Of a stretch of DNA of 64,000 nt, positions 5,827 through 59,507 are shown in pieces. A program made the translations under genes and the position numbers. The notes below the pieces were generated by a model that saw nothing but the letters and a program-made list of their open reading frames with translations, did no database searches and had not been told where the DNA came from. The stretch is from contig JBBRQD010000013.1 of NCBI GenBank assembly GCA_038227045.1, forward strand, positions 5,262 to 69,261, read 5' to 3'. Within the stretch, counting starts at the first letter, position 1; every line of letters begins with the position of its first letter. Source of the DNA: Planctomycetota bacterium. GTDB lineage: Bacteria; Planctomycetota; SZUA-567; H5-PLA8.

Positions 5827-5844
5827 AGATTCAACACTCTCTTG

Positions 5845-5945
5845 CTGGCACCCCTCCGGGGTGCGGGATGTTTGGGGATCGAATCCGGTGGTGTTGGCCG
5901 GGTACGGCCTCAACCACCGGCTAATTTCTGAAATCCCTTCGGGAT
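5845..5945. repeat. three-hairpin ~100-nt repeat element, copy A
   Basis: Consists of GCACCC-n4-GGGTGC, then CCGGTGGTGTTGGCC-GGGTAC-GGCCTCAACCACCGG, then ATCCC-n3-GGGAT. Same modules recur at 46558-46660 (inverted) and 46712-46813. Confidence 0.85.
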
Positions 5946-5957
5946 AAAATTGAACGA

Positions 5958-8858: not shown

Positions 8859-8877
8859 GTCAAAATTTCCCCAATTG

Positions 8878-8958
8878 CGGTTGAAGGTTTAAAGGTTGAA
8901 TGTTGAAGGTTCAAATCAACAACTTTCAACCTTCAACCTTCTAACTTTCAACAAGTGT
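8878..8958. repeat. imperfect hairpin built from GTTGAAG-type heptamer repeats
   Basis: GGTTGAAGGTTTAAAGGTTGAATGTTGAAGGTTCAAA faces CAACTTTCAACCTTCAACCTTCTAACTTTCAAC. Lies between the argC start and the rsfS stop. Confidence 0.8.
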
Positions 8959-12479: not shown

Positions 12480-12496
12480 GAATGCTTCTCCGAGAA

Positions 12497-12647
12497 TGGA
12501 GAGGGGTTAGGGGCTAGGGAGTAGGGACAAGGGAGTAAAAATAGAGCTTCTACGCGTCCTTTAAGTCTCAAAAGCGCGAAGCGCTTTCCCTCCCTAATCC
12601 CTAGCCCCTAATCCCTAGCCCCTAATCCCTAACCTCCTAACCCCTAA
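12497..12647. repeat. G-rich/C-rich heptamer-repeat inverted repeat (GGGGTTAGGGGCTAGGG vs CCCTAATCCCTAGC x2.5)
   Basis: G-rich arm at 12499-12535 and C-rich arm at 12587-12646 with 7-nt periodicity. Lies between the aminotransferase stop and the pilT start. Confidence 0.85.
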
Positions 12648-22030: not shown

Positions 22031-22119
22031 ACTAGGATTTAGAGGGTAGGGTTTAGGGAATAGTGGGAAAGAAATGTGTTGCAGTACCCTAGCCCCTAAC
22101 CCCTGTCCCTTAGTCCCTG
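22031..22119. repeat. G-rich/C-rich repeat pair of the GGGGTTAGGGG family
   Basis: The complement of 22086-22119 contains GGGGTTAGGGGCTAGGG, the same 17-mer as 12494-12510. Partner arm AGGGTAGGGTTTAGGGAATAGTGGG lies upstream. Confidence 0.75.
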
Positions 22120-22149: not shown

Positions 22150-22950
22150 ATGATTGACGTTCGCGGCATCAAAATGATTTTCTACACGCACGAAGGCAAA
22201 GAGCAGCTTGCCGTCGACGGCTTGAGTTTTCATGTCGGCGCCGGAGAAGTGTATGGATTGCTCGGCCCAAACGGCGCAGGCAAGACGACGACTCTGCGCA
22301 TGCTCGCCGGCTTGATGAATCCGTCCGCCGGGGAAGTGTTCATTGACGGCGTCAGCGGCGCGTCCGATCCGATGGCGCTCAAAATGCGCGCCGGTTTTCT
22401 CACCGCCAACACCGGACTTTACGCGCGGCTGACTCCGCGCGAAACGCTCGCGTATTTCGCGCGTCTTCGCGGCGTGCCTGAAAATAAACTCGTTGCGCAC
22501 GTGAACCACCTGGTCGATTTGTTGAGCCTCACGAGCTTCGCTGATCGCCGCTGCGAAGGCATGTCCACGGGCGAACGTCAGCGCGTCCAAATCGCCCGCA
22601 CGCTGGTCGGCGATCCGCCGGTACTGATCCTAGACGAACCCACGCTCGGCCTGGACGTTCTCACCAACCGCCTGATTCTTCATTTCGTGCGCGACGCCGC
22701 GAAGCTCGGCCGCACGATCATCCTCTCAACGCACCACCTTGACGAAGTTGAAACGATCTGCCATCGCTACGGCCTGATGCACCGCGGCCGCATGTTGGCC
22801 GAAGGTACGCTCGCCGAATTGCGCGCTCTCTCCGGACAGGAACGGCTCAGCGAAATATTTTTAACGCTCGTCGAACGCGTCGAAGGAAAAGCAGTGGAGG
22901 AGGAAGAAGTGCTTCATGGCGAGATCGGCACAAATCCAATTGAAGGTTAG
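22150..22950 (+). CDS. ABC transporter ATP-binding protein (NatA-like single NBD)
   Basis: Walker A GPNGAGKTT, signature MSTGERQR, Walker B ILDEPT. The last codons (IEG-stop) are supplied by the heptamer repeat. Confidence 0.85.
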   Translation: MIDVRGIKMIFYTHEGKEQLAVDGLSFHVGAGEVYGLLGPNGAGKTTTLRMLAGLMNPSAGEVFIDGVSGASDPMALKMRAGFLTANTGLYARLTPRETLAYFARLRGVPENKLVAHVNHLVDLLSLTSFADRRCEGMSTGERQRVQIARTLVGDPPVLILDEPTLGLDVLTNRLILHFVRDAAKLGRTIILSTHHLDEVETICHRYGLMHRGRMLAEGTLAELRALSGQERLSEIFLTLVERVEGKAVEEEEVLHGEIGTNPIEG

Positions 22951-23028
22951 AAGGTTGAAGGTTTAGAACGGAGATCACTTTGTCGTGAGTATTTAACCTT
23001 CAACTTTCAACCTTCAAACCTTCAACCC
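22940..23028. repeat. GTTGAAG-heptamer hairpin
   Basis: TTGAAGGTTAGAAGGTTGAAGGTTTAGAA faces TTAACCTTCAACTTTCAACCTTCAAACCTTCAACCC. Overlaps the 3' end of the ABC ATPase ORF. Confidence 0.8.
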
Positions 23029-27747: not shown

Positions 27748-27777
27748 AAAAAAGCGGCCCATGAAGGCCGCTTTTTC
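27748..27777. terminator. bidirectional intrinsic terminator
   Basis: AAAAAGCGGCC-catgaa-GGCCGCTTTTT with A/T tracts on both sides, 48 nt downstream of the secDF stop. Confidence 0.8.
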
Positions 27778-27824
27778 TTAAAACATTAACTCTCAACTTT
27801 AAACCTTCAAACCTTCAACCGCCG

Positions 27825-34072: not shown

Positions 34073-34165
34073 GGTGGTGCGTGCTCCTTCGATTTACCTA
34101 TTGGCATTATAAAGCCAAGCGCGATTCGCGGTATGATAGAATTCCCGTTCTCGCAGTCTCTTTTT

Positions 34166-34280
34166 TTCTCTCGCAAAGACGCAAAGGCGCAAAGAACGGC
34201 AAGAGAGATGAGGAAAATCCCTTGTTACACTCCCTTATTTGAATGGCTGTTCTTTGCGTCTTTGCGCCTTTGCGAGAGAA
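34166..34280. repeat. 32-bp-arm inverted repeat (CGCAAAG octamer repeats) between pyrH and frr
   Basis: 34166-34197 pairs with 34249-34280 with one mismatch and one wobble. Loop is about 51 nt. Confidence 0.85.
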
Positions 34281-34285
34281 TCAAA

Positions 34286-36013: not shown

Positions 36014-36454
36014 TCAGGTGCCACGATTCGGTTCCCCTCTCCCCAGCGGGGGAGAGGGGTTAGGGGTGAGGGGGAAAGTCTGCCGCTCACGAAATGTGTT
36101 AAAAATCAGCTCCAACACGCCGTCGAGATTCGTAAATATCTCAATATCCCAGACGCGTATAACTTTGATACCTTCGCTCGCGAAACACACGTCTCTGCGA
36201 GCGTCGTTGCGTTCTCTGCCGGCGTGCGAATCGCCATCCAACTCAAGGATGATCTTTGCGTCCGCGCAGTAATAGTCCGCGATGTATTTTCCGACCGGTT
36301 GTTGACGCCGGAATTTAATTCCGGCGTATCGTCGCCCGCGCAATCTCGCCCACAGCATTTTCTCGGAGGGCGTCAAGCGTTTTCGAAGTGCTCTTGCTTT
36401 TTCGATCTTCGTCAGCGGGATTGCAGCTATTTCGGGAGTTGCTGGTGAATTCAT
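36014..36454 (-). CDS. DUF559 (Vsr-like endonuclease fold) domain protein
   Basis: LRKRLTPSEKMLWARLRGRR...FRRQQPVGKYIADYYC...LELDGDSH pattern. The C-terminal ~20 aa are encoded by the flanking repeat. Confidence 0.75.
   Translation of the reverse strand: MNSPATPEIAAIPLTKIEKARALRKRLTPSEKMLWARLRGRRYAGIKFRRQQPVGKYIADYYCADAKIILELDGDSHAGRERNDARRDVCFASEGIKVIRVWDIEIFTNLDGVLELIFNTFRERQTFPLTPNPSPPLGRGEPNRGT
36031..36076. repeat. left inverted repeat flanking the DUF559 ORF
   Basis: GTTCCCCTCTCCCCAGCGGGGGAGAGGGGTTAGGGGTGAGGGGGAAAG matches the reverse complement of 36456-36502 at about 44 of 47 positions. Confidence 0.85.
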
Positions 36455-36455
36455 G

Positions 36456-36502
36456 CTTCCCCCTCACCCCTGACCCCTCTCCCTCGCTGGGGAGAGGGGA
36501 CC
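36456..36502. repeat. right inverted repeat flanking the DUF559 ORF
   Basis: CTTCCCCCTCACCCCTGACCCCTCTCCCTCGCTGGGGAGAGGGGACC ends 1 nt from the DUF559 ATG. Each copy also contains an internal CCCCTCTCCC/GGGAGAGGGG hairpin. Confidence 0.85.
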
Positions 36503-36520
36503 GGGATCCGAGACTTGATA

Positions 36521-39864: not shown

Positions 39865-40049
39865 AACGGCTTTTTAACATCGAATCGCGCGGATCATCGC
39901 GAATCTTCACAGATGTTTCTTGAGGTTATTGAACGTCTCGGATTAATGCTGACGCCTAATTCAATTCGAGACAGTTAATACAAAACTCTTCAGAAATTAT
40001 CCGCGAAGATTCGCGATGATCCGCGCGATTCGATGTTTTAAAAGCCGTT
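39865..40049. repeat. 44-45-bp-arm near-perfect inverted repeat with ~96-nt spacer
   Basis: 39865-39908 pairs with 40005-40049, differing only in T/A-run length. Lies between the convergent SGNH hydrolase and exbD genes. Right arm overlaps the exbD stop. Confidence 0.9.
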
Positions 40050-40499: not shown

Positions 40500-40580
40500 C
40501 CAGAGCCGCGCACGTCAGTAAGCGGCTTATACTTGCATTCCGAAAAAGTCTTTGCCGCTTACTGACGTGCGCGGCTCTGG
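40500..40580. repeat. perfect 27-bp stem hairpin between exbB-like and exbD-like genes
   Basis: 40500-40526 CCAGAGCCGCGCACGTCAGTAAGCGGC is the exact reverse complement of 40554-40580. Loop is 27 nt. Confidence 0.9.
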
Positions 40581-45129: not shown

Positions 45130-46506
45130 TCATTGCGGCGGCTTTGCGGCTCCACCCAGCACGCGGCGCCCCGGTCTGTTGCCCACCGGCTTATTCACTT
45201 CCTTTTTCTTTTGATAAAATCCGCCGGGTTTTTCAATCGGGTCGAAAAAGTCCATTCCGGCCGCGATCATCGTCACCAGAATTTGCTCCGATCTTTCCGG
45301 AAAACGCCGCTTCACCTGCAAGTCGTTGGCGTCCGTTCTAAATTCTTTCAGTTCCGTCTTATCGCGGTTGCTGTGTTCAAAGGACGGTGAAAGAATTTCA
45401 AGCTGCCGGAACACCAGGAACTGCCCTTCCAGCACGATAACCGGATTGCCGTGTTCGTCGGCGAAAGTGATGCCGAGCGGGTCGATCTTCGTCACCGTAT
45501 ATTTGTAGTCGGGAAGATAGTCGCCAACCTTTACATCCATTGTCTTGCCGCTATCGCGAAATTTCAATTGCGGCATGCGCGGGCCGTTGACGGGCGGATT
45601 CCACGCGGAGTTGATCGGCGTAACACCCGTGAATTCCAAGTTGGGATCCTTGGGCGTCCGGACCGAATGCATGAATTGGATAAACGTATTCGTGTCGCAG
45701 ATCAACTGAATCTTGACCGGGTATTCCTGGATGAAAACAGGCCACGATTCGACGTTGAATTTTCGAAATTTCGCGCTGCTGGGGTTTTTTTCAGCCGGAT
45801 CGTATTTCGGATTCGGGATCAGCGCCGTCGGTCCGGTCGTCTCCGAATCGCGCGGCTCCACCAGCATGATGCGCATGTACGCCTCGGGCTTGAAACCGAG
45901 GCTGCGCTCGCGATTCTCCTCGGCCAGTTTCGCCTGAATGCACAGATCGATAATCCTTTCGGCAATATACAATTCGCGCAGAAATTCCAACGCTTTATCC
46001 CGGTCGGGAATATTGCCGGAGATCCGCTTGAAACCGATGTCCGCATCGTCGACTTCCACATGCGCGTTCTTGCAGGCGATCTCCACTACGTTTCGGTGGT
46101 TCTCCCAGGTTTTTCGGAAATAAAGCCCGGGGTCGCGCTCGTCAGTCTCCGTCCACGTCGGATAGGCAATGCGATTGGCACTTTGCTTTTCTTCGATCTT
46201 TGCTTTCGTGAACTCGTTCGCATCATCGTACAGCTTCTTCAGCCCTTCGATGGGATGATCGTCGCCGGAGGAAATGTTGGGCTCCCCGCGTTCGCCGTAA
46301 TGAACCGGCTGAATGGGCGAGTGGTACGTGTCATAGTTGCCACCCGTCGTTTTTAAATTTGCGCGCGCATTGGATTCCTGTTCCGCCAGAGCCGAATAAC
46401 CGGCGAGACCCAGCCATCCCGCCGGCCAAAAGTACACCACTCCGAAGATCACCGCCCCGATGATCGCGCCGTTCACCAGCCGTTGATCCGACTTGTCCAA
46501 TGCCAT
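45130..46506 (-). CDS. membrane-anchored pilus-assembly-like protein (PilO/GspM-like plus inserted PilP-like domain)
   Basis: N-terminal TM GAIIGAVIFGVVYFW. Contains VKVGDYLPDYKYTVTKID, nearly identical to the downstream gene's motif. Confidence 0.55.
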   Translation of the reverse strand: MALDKSDQRLVNGAIIGAVIFGVVYFWPAGWLGLAGYSALAEQESNARANLKTTGGNYDTYHSPIQPVHYGERGEPNISSGDDHPIEGLKKLYDDANEFTKAKIEEKQSANRIAYPTWTETDERDPGLYFRKTWENHRNVVEIACKNAHVEVDDADIGFKRISGNIPDRDKALEFLRELYIAERIIDLCIQAKLAEENRERSLGFKPEAYMRIMLVEPRDSETTGPTALIPNPKYDPAEKNPSSAKFRKFNVESWPVFIQEYPVKIQLICDTNTFIQFMHSVRTPKDPNLEFTGVTPINSAWNPPVNGPRMPQLKFRDSGKTMDVKVGDYLPDYKYTVTKIDPLGITFADEHGNPVIVLEGQFLVFRQLEILSPSFEHSNRDKTELKEFRTDANDLQVKRRFPERSEQILVTMIAAGMDFFDPIEKPGGFYQKKKEVNKPVGNRPGRRVLGGAAKPPQ

Positions 46507-46557
46507 GGCGTTTCGTCCTGTTTAAACAACCCTAATTCAGTCGTTGCTTTCGCTCCC

Positions 46558-46660
46558 ATCCCGAAGGGATTGAAAGCGATTAGCCGGTGGTTGAGGCCGT
46601 ACGCGGCCGACACCACCGGATTCAATTCAAAATCGTCCTGCACCCCGGCAGGGGTGTCAG
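46558..46660. repeat. three-hairpin repeat element, copy B (inverted relative to A and C)
   Basis: ATCCCGAAGGGAT ... CCGGTGGTTGAGGCCGTACGCGGCCGACACCACCGG ... GCACCCCGGCAGGGGTG. Confidence 0.85.
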
Positions 46661-46711
46661 CCTGGACTTGCCGTAACAATCCAAGCTGTATTTTGTGCGT
46701 TTCGAACTTTG

Positions 46712-46813
46712 CTGGCACCCTTCCAGGGTGCGGCACTTTTGTCTCGTCTATTCCGGTGGTGTCGGCCGGGTACGGCCTCAACCACCGGCTAATCGCTGGC
46801 ATCCCTCCGGGAT
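46712..46813. repeat. three-hairpin repeat element, copy C
   Basis: CTGGCACCCTTCCAGGGTGC ... CCGGTGGTGTCGGCCGGGTACGGCCTCAACCACCGG ... ATCCCTCCGGGAT. With copy B it forms an inverted pair around a 51-nt spacer. Confidence 0.85.
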
Positions 46814-46917
46814 GACGGCAATTCAACCGTTTGCGTTGACGAGTCACTGCTATTTCAAATCACCATGCATCGACCTCGAAGTCACCGGCAAATTAAGGCG
46901 CGTCCGATGTCGCACAA

Positions 46918-49900
46918 TCATTGTTTCGCGTCCTTGGGAACTTTCTCGGGAGCCACGGCCGGCTCGTCCGGCACCACATAAACAGGCTTGCGCTTCGGTT
47001 CCGGCACGGCCGGCTGATTGTTTGGGACCGCCGGTATCAATGGCCGCGCAGGTACCGGAGTGGCTATTACGGGTCGCGCCGGGATTACTGGATTGATCGG
47101 TTGCGCTGCGGGCCGCGCCGGTTGAACGTCCTGAATCGGCTGCTCGACCAGACCGGGCTGCGGTTGATTCTGACGAACTGCGGGTACCAAAGGCGGCGTG
47201 ACTGGAGCTTGCGGCACAAATGGATTTGCGCGCGGATTCGCGGGCAGAACCGCCGGCGGATTGACCGGAACGATTGGTTTTCCTACAGGAGTTTTCGGCA
47301 CATCTTTCTTGACGTTCCTTTTATCGCCGGCGTTCTTCGGATTTGTCGTATCGGTCTTAGCAGTTGCGTCCTTTGCTGCCGCCGCAGTGTACGCTTCGAG
47401 CACGAATTCCTTGAGATACAATCCGCCATTCAAGTTATCTTCTTTGCTGATCCAAATCGGACGAATGTCCTTGAATAAATTCGCGGGGTTGTCCGGGTCC
47501 AGCGGAAATGGCACCAGTTTGTCGTAAAAATCCTGGATCGGCTTGATCAGGCTTTCCTTCTGTTTGCCGCGCGCAAACCCCCGCAAATAAACGCGCCGTT
47601 GCGCCAGGAACGAGTCCGGTTCCTTGTTGGCTTCTGGCGGCTTGCCGCCTTCCGATGTGGTGGCCTCGGCCATCACCACGGCAGGCATGGTCGTGGAGAT
47701 CGAAGTCAGATAAATGTCGTCCTGGATGCGCTGCTTGCTCTTCAATTCCGCCAGCAGATTCAGGAAATAATCCCCGGACTGGACGTTGTCGGTGATCGTC
47801 TTGAGCCGGTGGCGCAATTCGTTATTCTCTTTTTCCTGCTTTTTAACGGCGTCGTTTTGAGTCCGCGCGAGTTTGAACGCCTCGTCTGCGCGCGTGAAGT
47901 TTTCGTTGAGCGCGTCGGTATTTCTGTACGGCGTGTAAACCAGCAGCCCCAGCGCCAGCGCCGCGGCGCCCGCCGCGTAATAGTGGTACGCGCCGCGCGC
48001 CCAGAACTCGCGGCGATTTTTGATCGACTGCGGCAGAAGCTGGAAATTGAACGAGCCCTTTCGCAGGTCGCTCAGCGCAAGCCCTAGCGCCACACCCAGC
48101 GTGTGCTGTTCGCCGCGCAGCGCTTCCGCCGCGGCGGGACTTAAGCGGGCCAGCGACAGATTGCGCAGCGGTTCCAGCATCTGCACTTCGACGCGCAGAC
48201 GCCGGCCCATGAATTCCGGCAAGCCTTTCAGTTTGCTGCCGCCGCCGGTGATATACAAGCGGTCGAGTTTCATCTGCGGCTGCTTGGCCTGCTGCTTGGC
48301 GTTGAGCATCACGTTTTCAACCGCCGCGCACAGCACCGCGGCTTCGCGAACGAGCGCGGCCGTCGTCTGCCGTTTGCGCCTGTCTTTGTCGTCGTTCAAG
48401 GCCGGCGTGCCGCTCGAACTTGCGGAAAGATCCGCAATCTCCTGCGACGCTCCGCCGGAGGGCGCAGCGTTTTCGGAAGCGCTTTTTGCGCCGTCGTTCA
48501 CTGGCATCAGATCGACGCTGGCTTGCGGCACTGGAGGCGCAACGTATTGAGTTGCGGTCAGCGGCGAAGGCTTGAGCCCGGCGCTATTCGGCGCATCTTT
48601 CTTTTCGTCGTCGATCGGCTGCAACTCAAAATCATCCAACGCGGCGGGCGCGGCCGCGGCAACGGGAACCGGCTTGGGCGCGACAGGCACGGGCGCGGCA
48701 CTTGCAGCAGACGCGGCGGGCGTTCGAACAACCTTGAGGGGTGCGGACGGCGTTGTATCCAATTCGAGCTCTTCCAGCGAAGGGGCCGAGTAATCGCTGG
48801 GGATCATCACCATCGCGGCAGGCAATTTTTGTGATTGCGCAGGGCTGGGAGCGACAGCCGAACTCGCTGGACCCGGAGCAGGTTGCGGTGCTCCTGCCGG
48901 AGATTGTCCCGATGGGGCGGCTAGTGGCACAGCGGGTTTGATCTGCGATCCCGCCGGACTTCCTGGAGTGGGGGAAGGGCGGACGTTCATTTTCGGACCG
49001 TCCGGTACGCGCGCGCGCCGCGATTCTTCGCTGCCACCAGCGGGCGCAACAGCCCCTGCGCTCGGCACAGGAACGATCCCCGAACGCGCCGGCGCGCCGC
49101 TCGGATTTACACCGGATGAACCGGCTGCGTCGGGAGTCTGAATACCTGGGACGACGTTCGACGCGCCGGGTTTGCCCGGCATGCTCGAGCGCGGAAGGCT
49201 CAACGTCGCGCCGGTGCGCTGCAAGCGCGGGCGGGCAGTCGTGCTTCCCGCCGCCGGCGGTGCATCGAAAACGATCTCTGCGGTCGTCTTCTTCAAATCG
49301 TCCGCTTCGGACCAATCGAGCTTTAAATCGTCCGCCAAATTTTGAGTGAACCTTCGGCCGCCGCCCAGCAGAGTGCGCGCATAATACAGCGCGCCATTCT
49401 TGCAGATCAGCACCGTCAAATCGTCGGCGCCTATGTCGGCCACCGCCACCGTCTTATCCGCGTCGAAGCCGTGCCCGTGGTAATACGCGCTGTACAAAGC
49501 AAGCGCTTCCAGATCGATCTCGATTTCGCCCAGCCCGCCGGACTTCGCTTGTCCGAGCAGTTCGGTGGCGTAGCTTTCACGGCACATGCCGATGATCACC
49601 GTGTACTGTCCGTTGGATTCGGGCACGTCCATGATGTGGTAGTCGGAGCAATTGGCCTCCTTCTCTTCGGCGCGTTCTTCGACCTCGTATTTGACAAGCA
49701 TCTCCAGACGCCACGGTGGAACCGGCGGAATTTGAAGATAGCGGATCGAGGTTCTGCCACCCGACGCGCCGACGCGGCGGGTCTCCGCGCGCAACCGCGC
49801 GCTGCGCACCAATTCCCGCAGCTTTTCGCCGATCGCCAGCGCACGATCCGGGCTTTCCGCCATGCGGGTGAGATCCGCGATCGGCATGGTTCCAGCCCCG

Positions 49901-59395: not shown

Positions 59396-59403
59396 ATAAA
59401 AAC

Positions 59404-59503
59404 GGTTGAAGGTTGAAGGTTCAAGGTGATCAGGCACCCGAACCATGAACTTAAAAACCTTCAACCTTCAACCTTCAACCTTCAACCTTAAAACCTTCAA
59501 CCC
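59404..59503. terminator. GGTTGAA-heptamer hairpin between convergent genes
   Basis: GGTTGAAGGTTGAAGGTTCAAGG faces (CCTTCAA)x4-CCTTAAAACCTTCAACCC. Confidence 0.7.
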
Positions 59504-59507
59504 AAAT

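Follow-up and report, generated by a model that had tools for sequence, protein, structure and literature searches.

What is a repeat of ~110 nucleotides (nt) that folds into three hairpins, and what keeps its stems intact? The question is raised by a 64,000-nt stretch of DNA from a Planctomycetota bacterium (the window; contig JBBRQD010000013.1), in which the repeat occurs once as a single unit (A) and once as an inverted doublet (units B and C). The window is part of a fragmented 6.45-Mb metagenome-assembled genome (MAG) of 285 contigs. An initial annotation of these letters had offered two options, a repeat like a miniature inverted-repeat transposable element (MITE) or a dispersed structured RNA motif. 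Our analysis indicates that the repeat is, in all likelihood, a family of the repetitive extragenic palindromic (REP) type, with doublets that resemble REPINs (REP doublets forming hairpins), and that a low-copy, IS200-like HUH/Y1 transposase of subclass 1.2 most probably has it as cognate DNA substrate.

Each unit begins with hairpin 1, a 7-bp stem (GCACCCC/GGGGTGC), which is followed by a variable linker of ~20 nt. Hairpin 2 is 36 nt long and consists of an 8-bp outer stem, an internal loop and an apical stem of 4-5 bp, with a conserved CTAAT immediately after it. Read on the opposite strand, this CTAAT is a 5' foot, which is TTAG in 32 of 38 units and GTAG in three. Hairpin 3 (ATCCC/GGGAT) completes the unit; hairpins 1 and 3, both small and placed on either side of the long central hairpin, are alike, 5' flanks included. 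The three copies are present where they had first been placed and carry the same three hairpins, and alignments of the copies bear out the earlier remark that the linkers vary while the stems are kept. A repeat search of the window matches the arms B and C over 46 nt (98% complementary) and copies A and C over 67 nt (88% identical). As single-stranded DNA, each unit folds into its three hairpins whichever strand is taken (z = -4 to -6), and the doublet (46550-46825) has an alternative fold as one long hairpin of -99.4 kcal/mol (z = -14). The internal loop of hairpin 2, annotated as UGA/GAC, is conserved in the subfamilies with an enlarged hairpin 2 and missing from compact relatives. A K-turn or tandem G·A reading of this loop was therefore rejected as a defining feature.

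Units in the window and in relatives were placed with a covariance model built from the genome's own copies (R1), genome-wide units were counted with nhmmer, and genes were called with a self-trained open reading frame (ORF) caller. The genome contains 50 units, arranged as 15 inverted doublets, one trio and ~15 singles. Together with the fold scores, this number places the repeat far beyond chance. All 15 doublets run (-) then (+), with the hairpin-1 sides facing inward and the foot and hairpin 3 outward; their spacers measure 14-47 nt, and one pair overlaps. Alignments of the inner flanks of 33 units and of 13 doublets show that doublet spacers are weakly homologous, which indicates that the doublet propagates as a single unit. 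According to the gene calls all units are intergenic, and they are found in both orientations relative to genes. Both neighbours were called for 29 elements, which lie in 21 co-directional, six convergent and two divergent gaps (genome background: 69% co-directional, 16% convergent and 15% divergent).

The genome also encodes an enzyme that sits between two such units. On contig C81, a (-) unit, a Y1_Tnp gene of 148 amino acids (aa; Pfam, 81 bits) and a (+) unit follow each other in the geometry of a doublet, with ~480 nt between the units. Scans of relatives with R1 recover the same arrangement: the (-) unit ends ~10 nt before the gene and the (+) unit starts ~10 nt after it, on whichever strand the gene lies. 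Both flanking units are present in eight relatives, and one only in four further genomes, some of them at contig ends. The bracketing arrangement recurs in at least nine genera of the family; Gemmataceae and two Verrucomicrobiota lineages have it too. Homologues ~65-70% identical to the transposase occur in Gemmataceae, Pirellulales, Verrucomicrobiae and Chthoniobacterales; the four loci examined from these lineages all have units beside the gene, in the canonical (-) gene (+) order at the Chthoniobacterales locus. Across a set of 41 related genomes, units and transposase occur together in 17, units only in two, the gene only in one and neither in 21.

Two of these loci have further neighbours. 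In a Verrucomicrobiae contig (JAHCLO010000001.1, 1-4447), the 148-aa transposase and two units lie inside a type I restriction-modification locus; hsdS is on one side of them, and on the other a DUF4062/HATPase/Fic-like gene and then hsdR. Directly left of the transposase locus on C81, a stretch of ~230 nt (C81:25326-25620) is itself a dispersed repeat, found at 72-77% identity on six other contigs.

The transposase gene is single-copy; contigs C7 and C61 each carry a further subclass-1.2 paralogue, whose product shares 38% identity with the C81 protein. All three paralogues have their own sequence version of the small/long/small hairpin layout. The C7 paralogue (C7:83790-84230; Y-motif YIRSQRTHH) is accompanied by a three-hairpin family dispersed on at least 12 contigs, and that on C61 (C61:25397-25825; Y-motif YILDQKERH) by one of few copies. 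A further gene, at C22:57716-58084, resembles class-2 REP-associated tyrosine transposases (RAYTs; motifs LDHVH and YMHNNP) and has on its flanks a simpler REP of its own, GGCCCACCCCGGCTTGCTGGGGTGGG, of which at least 15 copies are dispersed; the right flank of the gene adjoins a sequence of ~150 nt that is repeated at 94-99% identity on six small contigs.

The C81 protein scores 63.1 bits with the NCBIfam model for IS200/IS605 transposases (NF033573, cutoff 55), and its nearest solved structures are TnpA proteins of the ISDra2 type (PDB 2fyx and 2xm3). The enzyme is intact: none of the 20 orthologues and paralogues aligned has lost DH[VI]H, WQ or Y...Q..HH. Published motifs (Table 1 of PMC6006769) were used to assign a subclass. 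The motifs DHVH, WQ and YITNQEEHH of the C81 protein, its length, its conserved C-terminal tail, the low copy number and the divergent paralogues match TnpA_Y1 subclass 1.2, for which DH[IV]H, WQ and YIKNQKEHH and a median of 148 aa are given (Quentin et al. 2018, PMC6006769). Class 3 TnpA_Y1, rich in Planctomycetes, was rejected, as its motifs NHVH, W[TA] and Y....Q are not in the C81 protein (PMC6006769). In the same paper, subclass 1.2 has the entry 'REP: no' and no typical end structures, and most of its members are from Cyanobacteria and Bacteroidetes.

A second line of evidence comes from Rfam. At the gathering threshold no family matches the window. A permissive search aligns part of unit C (46766-46814) with RF01687 (Acido-Lenti-1) at 19.7 bits, below the gathering score of 37, and nine further units of the main family reach 17-23 bits. 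Units around the paralogues score above the threshold (56.8, 48.2 and 42.0 bits for C61; 43.6, 43.5 and 42.6 bits for C7), and those of one genus (g7) reach up to 61.8 bits. In the cmscan alignments the RF01687 consensus, a hairpin, a CUAAU linker and a small hairpin with a CUUCGG-type loop, corresponds to hairpin 2, the foot and hairpin 3. The units above the threshold have a compact hairpin 2; those of the window score low because their hairpin 2 is enlarged to 36 nt and has an internal loop; the Rfam model also lacks hairpin 1. A match to an already catalogued family had been named as one outcome that would settle the nature of the repeat. The match found is indirect, by way of sister families in the same genome, while the window units themselves stay below the threshold.

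The distribution of RF01687 follows that of the transposase. Among the 41 relatives it is found in all 18 transposase-positive genomes (8-108 hits each) and in three of the 23 negative ones (1-5 hits each; Fisher p = 7.5e-9). In 151 genomes from across the phylum, the figures are 28 of 29 positive and 11 of 122 negative genomes (odds ratio 283, p = 2e-20), and at least 12 further loci have a match 50-130 nt from the transposase gene. Of Acido-Lenti-1, Weinberg et al. 2010 (PMC2864571) state no more than that it occurs in Acidobacteria and Lentisphaerae and in some cases lies close to group II introns; its Rfam entry describes a small RNA (sRNA) of unknown function with no transposase link recorded. 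The supplementary files of Weinberg et al. gave no IS200 or transposase context for the motif, and no link to a transposase appears in the searched literature that mentions it. On balance we favour the view that Acido-Lenti-1 is not primarily an RNA but the DNA recognition core, comprising the main hairpin, the CTAAT foot and the small hairpin, of REP/REPIN-like elements on which TnpA_Y1 subclass 1.2 acts. Such a system would be widespread in bacteria of the Planctomycetes-Verrucomicrobia-Chlamydiae (PVC) group and would stand, in evolutionary terms, midway from IS200 insertion sequences to the domesticated pairs of RAYT and REP; in its units, the two similar small hairpins may be counterparts of the left-end and right-end hairpins of IS200.

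The stems of the repeat are conserved by compensatory change. In this genome, 10 of the 25 pairs show double changes, a number reached in none of 500 shuffles; across at least 10 genera, 23 of the 25 do, and 97.3% of cells are paired. An RNA encoded on one strand is expected to tolerate G·U pairs on that strand. In two alignments with ~890 Watson-Crick cells each, G·U occurs eight and four times and A·C nine and six times (~1% each). That G·U is as rare as A·C fits a constraint on DNA hairpins or on both strands rather than on one RNA strand. In the initial annotation, a lack of compensatory stem changes, with random placement, would have marked a plain selfish repeat. Such changes are abundant here, but the rule does not hold for this repeat, because stems are likewise preserved by a transposase whose target is a hairpin of single-stranded DNA.

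The same observations bear on the possibility that the repeat is a non-coding RNA related to Acido-Lenti-1, either an sRNA or an element acting in cis within mRNAs, with hairpins maintained by a function of the RNA and only an incidental link to a transposase. This would be in keeping with the strong covariation and with the compact relatives being in Rfam as probable RNA. Most units also lie within co-directional gene clusters, so that they are probably transcribed, and of the seven singles that lie in tandem gaps, six run antisense to their neighbours, which hints weakly at an orientation bias. The symmetry of G·U and A·C, however, favours neither strand, doublets present both orientations to any transcript, and the doublet of the window yielded no site resembling a promoter or a terminator. 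Nor would an RNA account for the fixed-geometry bracketing of a transposase gene across two phyla, for a unit distribution that follows the transposase, or for a doublet site that is empty in two congeners though the flanking genes are conserved. A structured RNA is therefore improbable as the primary explanation. Two more specific candidates were rejected as well: a bidirectional promoter in the spacer, for which no promoter-like sites were found and which is at odds with one doublet that has a single shared hairpin 1 and no spacer, and an intrinsic terminator, as no hairpin has a T-run after it.

Unit sites turn over between species. In the two congeners in which the locus of the doublet could be found (G001 and G002), the gap measures only ~60-75 nt and holds no unit. 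The congeners are ~70-75% identical in the flanking genes and their intergenic DNA is unalignable; the exact ends and the target site were not obtained from the empty sites. At the orthologous pilM site G002 has a different short tandem array, AGTCCTGAGTGCTG-like. The site of copy A coincides with a synteny break in G002 and G003 and is uninformative on insertion. A tree built from 78 units of three congeners groups them by genome, with 10 label changes against 34 in shuffles and none of 200 label shuffles as low. The subfamily that has expanded differs from species to species, and the variant that flanks the C81 transposase is the abundant type in G002.

Turnover also limits what the host may have made of these sites. 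Units could have been exapted as DNA sites, for binding of nucleoid proteins or gyrase or as operon-internal mRNA stabilisers, and now be under host selection. This would fit the age of the copies, whose terminal branches are ~9% divergent, the keeping of stems while linkers decay, and the tight intergenic placement, in which gaps with divergent promoters are mildly avoided (2 of 29 elements; p = 0.02, background weighted by base pairs), in agreement with what is known of REPs (PMC3733652). Sites that are not conserved between congeneric species argue against a site-specific host function, and the fixed association with the transposase would be left unexplained. We regard host exaptation as unlikely to be the principal explanation; it complements the reading as a transposase substrate and does not replace it.

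The doublet could also be taken for a classical MITE, derived by deletion from an insertion sequence of the DDE type and ending in long terminal inverted repeats (TIRs), as it resembles an element of ~265 nt with inverted ends of ~110 nt. Such a derivation is highly improbable. Neither a target-site duplication nor conserved termini were found, single units are common (~15 of ~35 elements), the sole gene found between such ends encodes a Y1/HUH transposase and not a DDE enzyme, and the stems inside each arm covary, which is not required by terminal inverted repeats alone. The MITE-like option of the initial annotation thus holds in so far as the repeat is non-autonomous and tied to a transposase; its type is that of REPs and REPINs served by an HUH/Y1 enzyme, not that of a classical MITE.

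For a REP-like substrate of the subclass-1.2 enzyme, a mechanism can be proposed by analogy with IS200/IS605 elements and TnpA_REP. The transposase would bind the hairpins once they have folded in single-stranded DNA, such as that of replication forks, and the foot and main hairpin would serve recognition, as GTAG and the REP hairpin do for TnpA_REP. Cutting and rejoining through a 5'-phosphotyrosine link could then copy or move doublets into new intergenic sites. Elements within operons are probably transcribed passively and may secondarily affect mRNA stability, as REPs do.

Several observations weigh against this assignment. Alignment of the outer flanks of units shows no target-site duplication or sharp common terminus, and neither a target-site signature nor an exact end could be defined. 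The C81 protein is nearer to IS200 transposases than to canonical RAYTs, scoring 22.8 bits with REP_Tyr_transpos (NF047646) against a cutoff of 80. The units that flank its gene belong to a variant subfamily (CCGGGGG type) and not to the main type of the window. G002 has 36 units and no close transposase orthologue in its assembly, and the locus of its best homologue is without flanking units. The divergence of the terminal branches marks the copies as old and their current activity as unproven, and no transposition event, excision product or biochemical activity has been observed.

Positions of the three units, their parts and the doublet in the window are listed below.

Table. Units of the three-hairpin repeat in the window (positions on the window; R1, score with the covariance model; z, single-stranded DNA fold)
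Feature	Position	Strand	R1 (bits)	z	Description
Unit A	5841-5950	(+)	117.1	-4.1	single unit
Unit A, hairpin 1	5848-5864				
Unit A, hairpin 2	5885-5920				
Unit A, foot	5921-5925				CTAAT
Unit A, hairpin 3	5933-5945				
Inverted doublet	46553-46818				REPIN-like; feet and hairpin 3 outside, hairpin 1 inside
Unit B	46553-46664	(-)	108.2	-4.3	left arm of doublet; parts read on + strand
Unit B, hairpin 3'	46558-46570				
Unit B, foot	46579-46583				ATTAG
Unit B, hairpin 2'	46584-46619				
Unit B, hairpin 1'	46640-46657				
Spacer	46665-46707				between arms B and C; weakly homologous to spacers of other doublets
Unit C	46708-46818	(+)	116.3	-6.1	right arm of doublet
Unit C, hairpin 1	46715-46731				
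Unit C, hairpin 2	46753-46788				
Unit C, foot	46789-46793				CTAAT
Unit C, hairpin 3	46801-46813				

The surroundings of the copies agree with the initial annotation. Units B and C face each other in a gap of 411 bp (46507-46917) between a PilM-containing ORF of 1035 aa and an ORF of 458 aa. Copy A has the start of a 156-aa ORF on one side and the stop of an acyl-CoA dehydrogenase gene on the other; both genes are on the minus strand, and copy A is antisense to them; the gene start is that of the annotated macro-domain gene, for which the Macro domain match is itself marginal (22.1 bits, cutoff 22). Three ORFs of 110-133 aa that run across the doublet (46473-46847 (-), 46483-46815 (+) and 46695-47096 (+)) are read-through artefacts, with coding scores near the floor of the self-trained caller, and risk being mis-annotated as genes.

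The genome is generally rich in palindromic intergenic elements, and the window contains several others. Hairpins with arms made up of heptamer arrays (AACCTTC/GAAGGTT) occupy the intergenic positions 8874-8953, 22945-23027, 27771-27822 and 59401-59507. G-rich inverted repeats of 52 nt (36025-36076 and 36457-36508; 90% complementary) enclose ~380 nt, and a related G-rich motif, GGGGTTAGGGG, is also found at 12495-12644 and 22087-22118. Long near-perfect hairpins with arms of 25-53 nt, unrelated to the three-hairpin unit, lie at 2883-2942, 34161-34285, 39871-40042 and 40500-40580.

These results have consequences beyond the locus. An orphan Rfam family would gain a concrete and testable origin, and a Y1 subclass thought to lack a substrate would be assigned one, with defined hairpins and a foot that open it to biochemistry. 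The results also warn that RNA motifs and hairpin DNA that HUH transposases recognise cannot be told apart by covariation alone; a test for symmetry of G·U and A·C is a cheap discriminator between the two kinds of constraint. Systems of the REPIN-RAYT type would extend to Planctomycetota and Verrucomicrobiota with an unusually large unit, which bears on the domestication of IS200-like enzymes. For annotation, spurious ORFs can be removed and contig breaks in these MAGs explained.

Systems of this kind are already known, as both REPtrons and TIRtrons have been described before, and a 'plethora' of tyrosine transposases with flanking repeats was reported in Rhodopirellula baltica (Di Nocera 2013, PMC3733652). 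REPtrons, which comprise REPs and bacterial interspersed mosaic elements (BIMEs) and REPIN-RAYT pairs (Nunvar 2010; Bertels & Rainey 2011, PMC3116915; Ton-Hoang 2012; PMC3733652), share with the elements studied here extragenic palindromes in tens of copies and inverted doublets with the feet outside, the 'HH dimers' of Di Nocera (PMC3733652). Also common to both are a low-copy Y1 gene bracketed by inverted units, a repeat family of its own for each paralogue, lineage-specific populations, and an unpaired tetranucleotide foot at the main hairpin. The sequence of the foot is mostly TTAG here, with GTAG in a few units, and comes close to the GT[AG]G of canonical REPs. In contrast to the single hairpin of 20-40 nt of REPtrons, our unit has ~110 nt and three covarying hairpins. 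The enzyme is not a class-2 RAYT, with Y...Q..HH in place of Y...NP and a RAYT model score far below the cutoff, and the hosts are Planctomycetota and Verrucomicrobiota rather than Proteobacteria.

TIRtrons (TIRYT) and the composite ends known from Pseudomonas, in which a degenerate REP is joined to unrelated stem-loops (PMC3733652), resemble our system in having Y1 genes with long multi-palindrome inverted ends and moderately abundant dispersed copies organised as dimers. Their transposases belong mostly to subclass 2.1, with helix-turn-helix (HTH) tails and a GGGGWSAS motif (PMC6006769), neither of which is present here. IS200/IS605 elements and their MITE-like derivatives have the transposases closest in sequence (NF033573; PDB 2fyx, 2xm3), and hairpins 1 and 3, which are in direct orientation within the unit, recall their subterminal left-end and right-end hairpins. 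Our gene, however, is single-copy, with paralogues 38% identical, and does not form multi-copy near-identical elements; its flanks are inverted rather than direct, whichever strand the gene is on, and there is no tnpB. TnpA_Y1 subclass 1.2 as described matches in motifs, in length (148 aa), in the conserved C-terminal tail, in low copy number and in within-genome copies that are ~36-38% identical. In our case dispersed structured repeats lie on both sides of the genes in the manner of REPtrons, and the genes occur in PVC bacteria. What is new against this background is the three-hairpin unit of ~110 nt, its association with subclass 1.2, and the identification of Acido-Lenti-1 as the probable core of such elements.
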